Assembly: GCA_964508365.1 (NCBI GenBank)
Contig: CAZDTP010000079.1
Span: 1 to 13,854, forward strand
Length of the DNA stretch: 13,854 nt
DNA from: an uncultured archaeon
Lineage (GTDB): Archaea > Asgardarchaeota > Lokiarchaeia > Sigyniarchaeales > SOKP01
Direction: 5' to 3'
In this document: positions 1,601-11,873 of the stretch, one piece after another
How positions within the stretch are numbered: the stretch's first letter is position 1
Layout: every line of letters begins with the position of its first letter
The notes under the pieces: generated by a model
What the model was told of the DNA's origin: nothing
What the model saw: only the letters and a program-made list of their open reading frames with translations
Databases searched by the model: none
Position numbers and translations under genes: made by a program

Positions 1601-2113
1601 ATGAACAACGAAGAACCGCCAAGACCTAATGGATTACTGGAGAATTCTATAGCACCTATGTTTGATACAAAAGACATCTACGGAAAAGAAATGAATTTGG
1701 AAACCTTGCTTGAAGAGTACAACGGAGTAATGATTGATTTTTTTAGGGGAAATTGGTGAAGTCACTGTAAAAAGCATTTATTTCTACTGACGGAAAATAT
1801 TACAGAATTTGAGAGCAGAAATATCAAGTTAATATCAATCGCAAGCGATAGCGAAAGGCTTCTAAAGAAATTTAAAGAAGAAAATAATTTCACTGTTGAT
1901 ATGATCTCTGATCGTGGAGCAAAAATCGCAAAAAATTACGATGTTTACTGGTTTGCTCCCGGCGGAGGAGGAACTTTGAACATTAAACAAGCGATACCAA
2001 GTAAATTTCTGATAAATAAGGATAGAAAGATAGTATGGACTTACATTGGTAAAGATAAGACAGACAGGCCTTCAATAAAAATGATGACTACTATAATTGA
2101 TGAAAATTTATAA
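1601..2113 (+). CDS. Peroxiredoxin-like (AhpC/TSA, thioredoxin fold) selenoprotein, 170 aa, Sec53 encoded by TGA 1757-1759
   Basis: Hand translation from ATG 1601 gives MNNEEPPRPNGLLENSIAPMFDTKDIYGKEMNLETLLEEYNGVMIDFFRGNW*SHCKKHLFLLTENITEFESRNIKLISIASDSERLLKKFKEENNFTVD, which continues in frame into track ORF 1901..2113. The single TGA sits where the redox Cys of the AhpC/TSA FxRGxWCxxC motif is expected. AhpC-type similarity is present on both sides: APMFDTKDIYGKEMNL before and AIPSKFLINKDRKIVW after. A SECIS-like hairpin follows the stop. Confidence 0.92.
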
Positions 2114-2116
2114 ATC

Positions 2117-2174
2117 CCTTTATGGATGACTTATGTATAAAAATAGTTGATACATGGGGACAACCTTGCTAAGG
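2117..2174 (+). promoter_or_regulatory. Eukaryote-like SECIS element in the 3' UTR (core 2126-2161)
   Basis: AUGA (2126-2129) is followed by CUUAUGUAU (2130-2138), loop AAAAUAGUUG (2139-2148), AUACAUGGGG (2149-2158) and GA-C (2159-2161). AUGUAU/AUACAU is perfectly complementary, extended by U-G, U-G and C-G pairs with one bulged G. Tandem G.A/A.G pairs are possible. A weaker lower stem can form: GG 2124-25/CC 2164-65 and CCUU 2117-20/AAGG 2171-74. Confidence 0.78.
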
Positions 2175-2196
2175 TTGGGGTATTTTATTTTTTTTT
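2161..2196. terminator. Perfect 7-bp hairpin plus T-tract between convergent genes
   Basis: CAACCTT-GCT-AAGGTTG (2161-2177), then GGG and TATTTTATTTTTTTTT. It lies between the stops at 2113 (+) and 2215 (-). Confidence 0.45.
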
Positions 2197-9723: not shown

Positions 9724-9860
9724 CTTTTATAATCAACTTATATATCTATCAAAATCAATCAGATAGAAATTAATGATAATAATTGAATATTATAATTTGG
9801 AAAAATTATTTAAAAATTATTTATAAAATAAAAAAATATTATATAAATATAAAGTCAATG

Positions 9861-10019
9861 TTACCGATTTCTACGCCTGGGTTTATTACTTTTTATCCGT
9901 CCCATTCCGCGTCTAGAACCTTTTGTGAACCCAGGGGAATCGCTATCAGCACAATCTCCTAAACCTCTACCAGTCTTACTCCCTTTTCCATCTGGTCCAG
10001 TTCTATCTCCTCTTGGCAT
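9861..10019 (-). CDS. DUF5320-like small Gly/Arg-rich protein (52 aa), absent from ORF track
   Basis: Hand translation gives MPRGDRTGPDGKGSKTGRGLGDCADSDSPGFTKGSRRGMGRIKSNKPRRRNR*. It matches the MPxGDxTGPxGxG-x2-TGRGxGxC signature. AAGGAG lies upstream at 10038-10033. Confidence 0.85.
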   Translation of the reverse strand: MPRGDRTGPDGKGSKTGRGLGDCADSDSPGFTKGSRRGMGRIKSNKPRRRNR

Positions 10020-10172
10020 TTTCTTCTCTTATCTCCTTTTATTTTTAAATTCTTTATTTTCTTGTATTATTAATATTAATTTACCTATTTTAATATTAAG
10101 GAATAATTATTCAAAAAAAGTAATTTGAATACTTACAAATATAAAAAAAGATTTAAATTTGCATTCTACTCA

Positions 10173-10222
10173 TCATTTTCCTAAGTACCCTAGAAATCAT
10201 TTTCCTAGTACCCTAGAAATCA
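10173..10222. repeat. Near-perfect tandem duplication, 24 + 23 bp plus partial third unit
   Basis: TCATTTTCCTAAGTACCCTAGAAA (10173-10196), TCATTTTCCTAGTACCCTAGAAA (10197-10219), then TCA. The units differ by one A. Confidence 0.9.
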
Positions 10223-10318
10223 AAAAATTATTAAAAAGGACAAAAATTTAAGTCTAAATTTCTAATAATATATTGAATTTATCATTTTCATTATAACCAG
10301 TTCAGTGAGGTAAATTAT

Positions 10319-10588
10319 ATGGACATAATTGTGTCTAAAGACGAGATAATTGAGTATAAAAAGCTTAAAGTTATTAGTGAAATCACTTTAACAAAGGAAA
10401 AAGTTTCTCTTTTCGAAAGGAAATACGGATGCTCTATAGATGAATTTAGAAAAAGAATGGAGAATTCGAAAGAGAGTTTTGAAGAATGGGATGATTACAT
10501 CGAATGGAAGGCAAATTTTGAATTATTAAAGGATTTGGAAAACAATTTAACTGAACTGGACAATGCAAAAGACATTAAAATTGTTTAA
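10319..10588 (+). CDS. Putative antitoxin partner of DUF6516 (TumA-like), 89 aa
   Basis: GTGAGGT SD at 10305-10311. The FERKYGCSIDEF...WDDYIEW pattern is typical of small acidic proteins found upstream of DUF6516. Its stop overlaps the next start. Confidence 0.75.
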   Translation: MDIIVSKDEIIEYKKLKVISEITLTKEKVSLFERKYGCSIDEFRKRMENSKESFEEWDDYIEWKANFELLKDLENNLTELDNAKDIKIV

Positions 10589-10904
10589 CAAGAGCGGAAT
10601 AATTAAAAAACATACCATTCTTGAAATTAAATATAGTACATCAGCACAATATTTAAAAGCTAGAGTAGAACTTAAGAATGGAGACATATTACATGTAAAG
10701 GAGTACATTTCTTCAACTGAACATTTATATTCATATCATTGGCAAAAAGAAAATGGGGATTTGATAATCAGATGGGACAATTCTCCACATCATAGACATT
10801 TACTAACATTTCCACACCATAAACATAGTCCAGATTTAGAGGAATCCTATGAAACGACTTTTAAAGATGTAATTAAAGTTATCAGTAAAATTTTAAAAAA
10901 ATAA
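10581..10904 (+). CDS. DUF6516 family protein (TumE-like putative toxin)
   Basis: Motifs YSYHWQ, IRWDNSPHH and TFPHHKH. TTG 10581 overlaps the upstream TAA; the alternative start is ATG 10563, as in the track. Confidence 0.85.
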   Translation: MFNKSGIIKKHTILEIKYSTSAQYLKARVELKNGDILHVKEYISSTEHLYSYHWQKENGDLIIRWDNSPHHRHLLTFPHHKHSPDLEESYETTFKDVIKVISKILKK

Positions 10905-10967
10905 GAAGAAAAAAAAATAAAGTTTTACTAAACCTTTTTGTTCATCTTCTTTCGAGCTTTCTTAAGG

Positions 10968-11132
10968 TCACCATCGGAGAAAATGATTTAAAAATGCTTC
11001 CACTCTTTTAGGAAAGACTGGCTTGGCTCCTAATTTAATAGCATCTTTAATAATCTCACTATCTGTTCCTTTTAGCCCTACGCTACCGCCCATCCCTGCG
11101 ATTGGATTTACTATGAGTCCAATTTTCTTCAT
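10968..11132 (-). pseudogene. Truncated ATP-NAD kinase-family paralog (N-terminal 54 aa only)
   Basis: Hand translation gives MKKIGLIVNPIAGMGGSVGLKGTDSEIIKDAIKLGAKPVFPKRVEAFLNHFLRW*. It has 33/45 identities to the N-terminus of 8599..9723. No further similarity was seen in any frame past about 10980. Confidence 0.88.
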
Positions 11133-11333
11133 ATTGATATTTTACCTTTGTAAGAGGTCGAGATAGTTTCACTTATGATTTGAATTTAAAAGTATATTTT
11201 CTTTTACAAACAATATAATTTAGGATTACTTACTTTTATAATTTTAAATTAAAAAATGAAAGGAGAAGAAAATACGCGCAATAATAAAACCTTCGGCTAT
11301 TTGTTAAAAGCTTCGAAATTAATTAACTGTGAG

Positions 11334-11537
11334 TTAATTATCCAATTTATCATAGCAATTTTGGCAGAAAAAGATTTTCCGCCCTTTTGAAACGTCCTTA
11401 ACCATATAACCTTTCTTATGCGCAGTCTCGCAACCCCAACACAGCTTAGTAATATGAGTTTCAACGATGTGATATTCTTTTTTATCAAATTTATCTTCTT
11501 TTATGAGTTCCTTATAACTTACCATTATTTCGCTCAA
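11334..11537 (-). CDS. Small putative zinc-finger protein (67 aa)
   Basis: CWGC...CQNC pairs 21 residues apart. TTG start (or internal ATG). A T-rich tract follows on the minus strand. Confidence 0.65.
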   Translation of the reverse strand: MSEIMVSYKELIKEDKFDKKEYHIVETHITKLCWGCETAHKKGYMVKDVSKGRKIFFCQNCYDKLDN

Positions 11538-11873
11538 CTTTAGTTTTTATAATTCCGAATGATTTTTCGAATAATCATTCAATATATTTTATTATTTGAA
11601 TTGAATCATATGAGATATTTAAGGATTATGAATGCGTATTCAAATAGCAGTAAGAAGGTCTAGAACTATTTTATGAATCTTTTACGTAAATTATATTAAT
11701 AAAAAAGAAAATCTAATCAGTTAAAGGTTTAGAAATTAAATAAATTCAAAAAAAAACAAAAAAAAAAATCGAGTATTTGATTATTCTACTTGCTATGAAT
11801 TTTCATCGGGATTTTTTTTTGAAGGATTTCAACCCTCTTTTATTCTCTCTCAATTTCTAAAATCTTAATTATG

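Follow-up and report, generated by a model that had tools for sequence, protein, structure and literature searches.

A probable lokiSECIS behind the Prx-like selenoprotein gene of a Lokiarchaeial genome, with comparative evidence suggesting a three-helix junction

Introduction

The closest described relatives of the RNA element considered here are the lokiSECIS of the PrxL, VhuU and HdrA-VhuD genes (Mariotti 2016, PMC4989117), in which AUGA precedes a 9-bp stem capped by an 11-nt loop, the first five loop nucleotides being mostly A and the last loop position an ultraconserved G, and in which GA, or AA in the case of VhuU, follows the stem; the same study lists Prx-like proteins with a redox box among the Loki selenoproteins. 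In more than 400 Asgard genomes, Huang 2024 (PMC11227280) catalogued the same element, behind prxL among other genes, under the name of type I eSECIS-like structure, with the core, the upper stem and the loop as the components of the model. Both papers report that eukaryotic SECIS models fail on lokiSECIS. No SBP2 has been reported in Asgard archaea, and PMC11227280 points to an uncharacterised protein found near the Sec genes. Among other archaea, the VhuD elements of methanogens bear AUGA and GAC/AAC flanks (PMC4989117). A further point of reference lies outside recoding: in the k-junction known from the TPP riboswitch (Wang 2014, PMC4005666) a G.A/A.G kink-turn accommodates a third helix in its non-bulged strand, coaxial with the C helix, and has the cross-strand hydrogen bonds of a standard k-turn.

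Here we describe an element of this kind in a Lokiarchaeial genome of 4.07 Mb (149 contigs, 32% G+C). The window, that is, the whole stretch of DNA under analysis, is the complete 13,854-bp contig C79. An original prediction had proposed that a hairpin in this window is a eukaryote-like recoding signal in the 3'UTR of a selenoprotein gene; our analysis upholds much of that proposal and corrects it in respect of the extent, the kinship and the novelty of the element.

Results

The PrxL gene and its recoded UGA

Gene callers break the gene for the Prx-like (PrxL) protein into two ORFs, 1592-1759 and 1901-2113, which read-through of a TGA unites into a single frame (Table 1). The product matches the Pfam families AhpC-TSA (5.6e-23) and Redoxin (1.4e-16), and its only in-frame UGA opens a UxxC redox box. 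The layout that had been predicted downstream, namely AUGA 12 nt after the stop codon, a 9-bp helix, a loop led by A and a returning GA, all at about 370 nt from the UGA, is confirmed, the measured distance from the UGA to AUGA being 369 nt. A bacterial-type SECIS directly behind the UGA was also considered and ruled out, since folding revealed no such hairpin there (z = +1.0).

Table 1. Positions in the window of the PrxL gene and of the parts of its 3'UTR element
Feature	Position	Strand	Remarks and basis
Prx-like (PrxL) selenoprotein gene	1601-2113	+	170 codons plus TAA; translation, Pfam
In-frame UGA (Sec53)	1757-1759	+	W-U-S-H-C redox box; translation
TAA stop of PrxL	2111-2113	+	12-nt gap (2114-2125), then AUGA; sequence
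P1 (lower stem), 5' strand	2114-2118	+	AUCCC; pairs with 2177-2181
Internal loop, 5' side	2119-2125	+	7 nt; G2124 invariant (alignment column G15)
AUGA core, 5' half of G.A/A.G quartet	2126-2129	+	invariant in 42/42 sequences
P2 (SECIS upper stem), 5' strand	2130-2138	+	9 nt; folding, covariation
Apical loop	2139-2149	+	11 nt (AAAAAUAGUUG), AAAAA start, G end; columns A32-A34 and G40 invariant
P2, 3' strand	2150-2158	+	folding, covariation
GA (3' half of quartet, 2159-2160) and invariant C	2159-2161	+	columns G50, A51 and C52 invariant
P3 (third hairpin)	2162-2176	+	6 bp, loop GCU; nested inside P1
P1, 3' strand	2177-2181	+	GGGGU; pairs with 2114-2118
T-run	2183-2196	+	13 T and one A; starts only behind element; sequence

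Our comparison comprises 41 orthologous loci from MAGs of Promethearchaeota (Loki-type Asgard; Promethearchaeia) with 68-94% protein identity, the window contributing the 42nd 3'UTR, and the provenance of these orthologues bears out the Asgard origin that had been proposed for the DNA. A TGA stands at the same aligned codon in 41 of the 41 orthologues, as it does in all full-length matches from 12 related genomes. No PrxL orthologue containing Cys instead was found among 151 sampled genomes of the phylum, TGA being present in every full-length match, and negative controls are for this reason limited to distant homologues (four bacterial, one from Woesearchaeota) and to TGA-free paralogues.

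Some relatives depart from the single UGA. In the orthologue L036:1501-2010 both redox positions are TGA (W-U-T-H-U, a UxxU box), and the PrxL genes at G094:C137 and G147:C240 likewise contain two TGA codons. In three other loci (L018:2752-2832, L020:2741-2821 and L034:2707-2787) the first SECIS is followed, some 700 nt further downstream, by a second one of the PrxL type that scores 82-87 bits, and this suggests that tandem duplicates of the PrxL gene exist in some relatives.

The SECIS core and its conservation

Both halves of the eukaryote-like AUGA/GA motif are present at the positions given in Table 1, as predicted, and they enclose a perfect P2 helix of nine pairs (C-G, U.G and U.G at the base, then A-U, U-A, G-C, U-A, A-U and U-A). 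The 35-nt hairpin 2126-2160 folds with -6.9 kcal/mol (z = -3.2), one of 200 shuffled sequences doing equally well. A strict motif, defined as ATGA, 9 bp with at most one mismatch, an 11-nt loop of the form AAA..G and then GA or AA, occurs three times in the 4.07-Mb genome and not once in any of five simulated genomes matched in size and dinucleotide content.

These properties agree with lokiSECIS in every defining feature: AUGA, a 9-bp stem, an 11-nt loop AAAAA....G and GA. The host gene belongs to the same family, its product being Prx-like and bearing a UxxC box, and the element likewise lies just behind the stop codon. The notion that the short helix makes the element an informative variant for SECIS evolution is therefore not borne out; a 9-bp stem with an 11-nt loop is exactly the published geometry (PMC4989117), and the short helix is the canonical Loki form. 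The G-rich wobble base that had also been pointed out does exist, in that two G.U pairs lie at the foot of the stem, but it is a local peculiarity which leaves the defining features unchanged, and the close relative L004 has A-U at both positions. The only other departure from the published description is that the clade of the window has U, rather than the usual A, before the final loop G.

The element is kept in 41 of the 41 PrxL orthologues, directly behind the stop codon or overlapping it, and conservation behind orthologues that retain the TGA, which had been put forward as a check on the prediction, is hence complete. No variation occurs across the 42 3'UTRs in the AUGA, in the closing U-A pair, in three of the five As that lead the loop, in the final G of the loop, in the GAC or at two positions of the hairpin downstream, while P2 covaries: it is 88.6% paired in the 42-sequence alignment, and eight of its nine pairs have changed on both sides, although the orthologues are kin and such counts of changes exceed the number of independent events. 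None of 500 shuffles reaches the covariation score of P2, and controls in which the stem was slid along the alignment scored 0.05-0.15 as against 0.48. In half of the 42 sequences the bases of the P2 pair next to AUGA do not match, as is expected if this pair belongs to the non-Watson-Crick quartet. The 9-bp/11-nt geometry holds in almost all orthologues resolved by the scan, two having a 12-nt loop and one reading as 10 bp and 9 nt.

The boundary between gene and element is not always clean. In five orthologues (L016, L024, L030, L032 and L037, at about 2012-2030) the UGA within the AUGA core doubles as the stop codon of the gene, and in many others (L017-L022 among them) the gene ends with a TAA situated in the internal loop that separates P1 from AUGA, so that the coding sequence overlaps the SECIS in such orthologues.

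As to the earlier concern that the transcript might end before the element is complete, the T-run begins only behind it. Oligo-T termination is known in archaea, and the run is likely to serve as the transcription stop downstream of the element. This arrangement invites the reading that hairpins and T-run are a mere terminator or stability structure of convergent genes, with AUGA and GA flanking it by chance: the region does lie between convergent genes, the 3HCDH gene on the minus strand ending at 2215; P3 plus the T-run fits the terminator-like pattern of a pattern scan; and the folding z-score of the whole element is only -1.25. Such a reading would nevertheless have to accommodate the invariance of the core and loop positions alongside a covarying stem, a strict motif whose chance expectation is about zero per genome, the fact that the same architecture elsewhere in the genome follows solely UGA-containing genes, and several elements (on contigs C8, C92 and C6) that have no T-run nearby. 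We regard it as extremely unlikely and retain the identification as a lokiSECIS.

Further elements and Sec genes in the genome

A covariance model, R1, was built solely from the PrxL 3'UTRs. Its one significant match in the window is the PrxL element (79 bits), and in the same genome it retrieves elements behind three FlpD/VhuD genes with two TGA codons each (C46, C53 and C92), behind a VhuU-type hydrogenase fragment, there in the AUGA_AA form (C8), behind a TGA-containing micro-ORF of 62 codons (C6) and behind shorter or less defined ORFs on C4 and C89. Each of 12 genomes sampled from the same family yields 2-7 matches to the model; the model finds nothing in the five loci of distant homologues (four bacterial, one from Woesearchaeota) and nothing behind the TGA-free paralogues examined.

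The genome also encodes SepSecS (381 bits) and an EFsec-like GTPase (237 bits), some 5 kb apart on contig C19 of G000 (C19:8417-9574 and C19:2090-2977, respectively), as well as selD with one TGA. A tRNA-Sec was not found in the whole genome by ARAGORN, with or without introns, or with RF01852, and within the 16 kb around SepSecS and EFsec (the contig start) Rfam and ARAGORN returned neither a tRNA-Sec nor any Rfam family. Since the MAG as a whole yielded no more than about 30 tRNAs, the assembly is probably short of tRNA genes. Taken with the co-occurrence of UGA and element and with the conserved structure, the R1 matches and the Sec genes support, on comparative grounds, the predicted role of the element as the 3'UTR recoding signal for Sec53.

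Two of the R1 matches call for separate description. The strong lokiSECIS at G000:C4:47512-47596 (equivalent to L049:1501-1585, minus strand; 56.7 bits) lies about 20 nt behind a zinc-ribbon-like ORF of about 40 codons (CxxC...CPxC) that ends ...RFK-TGA-TAA; judging from this reading frame, the ORF could carry a C-terminal selenocysteine. A TGA-free paralogous micro-ORF is situated just downstream of the same element. The match at G000:C50:14527-14603 (+) (L054; R1 35.6 bits) possesses the stem, the loop, the GAC and the third hairpin, lacks AUGA and has no convincing UGA-containing ORF upstream; it is possibly a decayed SECIS.

A three-helix arrangement around the core

The conserved structure extends over 2114-2181. 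The span initially proposed, 2117-2174, rightly includes the core; it cuts the full element, and the lower stem (P1) and the third hairpin (P3) were missed. P1 and P3 place the core within a three-way junction whose side arm, P3, belongs to the 3' strand. When AUGA and GA are held unpaired, the three-way junction is the minimum-energy fold of the window sequence; without constraint, a small 5' hairpin is favoured over P1 (-16.5 versus -14.3 kcal/mol, a gap of 2.2 kcal/mol), so that P1 in this sequence rests on comparison and not on energy. Constrained minimum-energy folding combined with loose counts gave no separation from shuffles as a test of the junction.

A homologous P1 stem, AAUCCC/GGGAUU with C-G, U-A and U.G alternatives, is found in the orthologues, and the figure of 76% pairing obtained for P1 is too low because both the MAFFT alignment and the model-fitted one misplace its columns by a single base. 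In a position-specific search across 49 elements (the 42 PrxL 3'UTRs and seven elements that belong to other gene families of a single genome), P1 and P3 were both present at defined places in 47, as against 28% of shuffles, and in 47 of the 49 the start of P3 follows GA/AA-C at a distance of 1-4 nt. Between gene families the sequences of both helices differ and pairing is kept, as seen in AACCUU/AAGGUU, GCCCC/GGGGU and GGACCAUU/AAUGGUUU for P3 and in AUCCC/GGGGU, CUCCC/GGGAG, UCCGAAU/AUUCGGA and GUUGGCUU/AAGCCAAU for P1.

It may be argued that only the core stem-loop is a SECIS and that P3 is a separate terminator or stability hairpin rather than a functional arm. The published models make do with the core, the upper stem and the loop; the pattern scan flags P3 as terminator-like; and covariation of P3 within PrxL is modest, two of six pairs having changed on both sides (alignment pairs 55-69 and 56-68), which is attributable to the sequence there being mostly conserved. 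A terminator, on the other hand, has no need to be nested inside P1 or to start at a nearly fixed distance from GA/AA-C, and a hairpin of other sequence occupies the P3 position behind seven other SECIS elements of the genome. P3 is moreover kept with or without a T-run behind the element, and this independence speaks against a mere terminator hairpin. On balance we consider a separate P3 rather unlikely, and we continue with the arrangement of P1, P2 and P3 around one core.

The arrangement resembles the k-junction in that P3 of the window is placed after GA-C and before the 3' strand of P1, a likeness that concerns the topology of the secondary structure only. The 5' loop of the k-junction measures 3-4 nt as compared with 7-9 nt plus AU in elements of the window type, and the functions differ.

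Relation to eukaryotic and other SECIS

With the eukaryotic type I SECIS the element has in common the AUGA_GA quartet, unpaired apical As, a location in the 3'UTR and action over hundreds of nucleotides, and these traits might be thought to make it a true member of the eukaryotic family, acting through an SBP2-type protein as in eukaryotes. The check with eukaryotic covariance models that had been suggested, however, turned out negative: at E <= 10 none of the Rfam families SECIS_1 to SECIS_5 was matched, neither in 1400-2600 nor when the 106-nt element (2095-2200) was searched by itself, and these scans returned solely noise (fragments of snoRNA, miRNA and rRNA). The eukaryotic models fail in like manner in Mariotti 2016 (PMC4989117). 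The element further differs from eukaryotic SECIS in its shorter stem fixed at 9 bp, in the conserved G that ends its loop and in the extra helix P3 of its 3' strand, and the genome contains only two L7Ae-domain genes, both short (134-aa frames), in a group for which SBP2 is unreported. Membership of the eukaryotic family is accordingly very unlikely; the element is a member of the Loki type, similar to eukaryotic SECIS in layout and outside the eukaryotic family.

The euryarchaeal SECIS of Methanococcales and Methanopyrus shares the 3'UTR position; its asymmetric GAA_A bulge, GC-rich lower stem and 3-bp GC upper stem are absent from 2114-2181. Weak matches to the snoRNAs SNORD20, sR5 and snoR24 nearby (E = 4-10) raise the alternative of a C/D-box or other L7Ae-bound kink-turn RNA with no relation to recoding. 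As all these matches are far below the gathering scores and mostly in coding sequence, as no C'/D' arrangement is present and as the element is tied to UGA-containing genes, this alternative is hardly conceivable.

A second AhpC/TSA-type gene and other observations

A second AhpC/TSA-type gene of the genome, C94:2981-3463(-), has a TGA at residue 50 (..SKS-U-PYA..), and of 26 genomes from the same family 16 retain it. No lokiSECIS follows this gene, and the RNA of its 3'UTR has no AUGA_GA core. The 3'UTR (L064:1407-1508, minus strand) instead contains another conserved three-helix RNA, composed of a P1 of GAUUUGG/CCAAAUC, a P2 of 9 bp whose loop is long and A-rich, and a hairpin of invariant sequence (AAGUUAGCCA); it is 90.7% paired, with compensatory changes in 11 pairs. 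From its sequence and predicted pairing, this RNA may represent a distinct SECIS type.

Elsewhere in the window, two small overlapping ORFs of 89 and 113 aa lie at 10319-10904 (+) within an ORF-poor stretch (9770-11870). The second of them is His-rich (..SPHHRHLLTFPHHKH..), and the two might form a toxin-antitoxin-like pair.

Discussion

The combined evidence leaves us with little doubt that the element at 2114-2181 is a lokiSECIS, i.e. an Asgard type I eSECIS-like element, of the mRNA for a Prx-like selenoprotein in a Lokiarchaeial genome. Its kind, its host gene family and its geometry have all been described before, and it is not a new variant.

In mechanistic terms, the tandem sheared pairs G2128.A2160 and A2129.G2159 would produce a kink-turn, which, together with the A-rich loop, would recruit EFsec carrying Sec-tRNA(Sec) to the ribosome. 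The candidates for a bridging factor are L7Ae, L30e, EFsec itself or the uncharacterised protein near the Sec genes (Huang). The ribosome would then decode UGA-53, 369 nt upstream, as selenocysteine, and transcription is expected to end in the T-run that immediately follows the element. The kink-turn would be set in a three-way junction formed by P1, P2 and the side hairpin P3 in the 3' strand, with the topology of a k-junction.

The sole addition that our results make to the descriptions of 2016 and 2024 is comparative evidence suggesting that the core is embedded in a conserved three-helix junction. In their main texts, supplementary figures aside, PMC4989117, PMC11227280 and a 2026 review make no mention of a third hairpin or a junction. 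Among the papers searched, none joins SECIS, Asgard and the three-way junction; the one paper containing both SECIS and k-junction cites the latter for GA_AA kinks. A tentative extension, which we consider possible although the balance is somewhat against it, holds that lokiSECIS is a three-way k-junction whose P3, a conserved side hairpin with a G in its loop, is needed by an archaeal SECIS-binding factor and was later lost on the way to the two-helix SECIS of eukaryotes.

For this genome, the findings imply a correction of the annotation, by which the two ORFs flanking the TGA become one selenoprotein gene and the intergenic hairpin becomes its recoding signal. If the third arm proves functional, it would offer a guide to the archaeal SECIS-binding protein and allow better search models for the selenoprotein genes of Asgard archaea.
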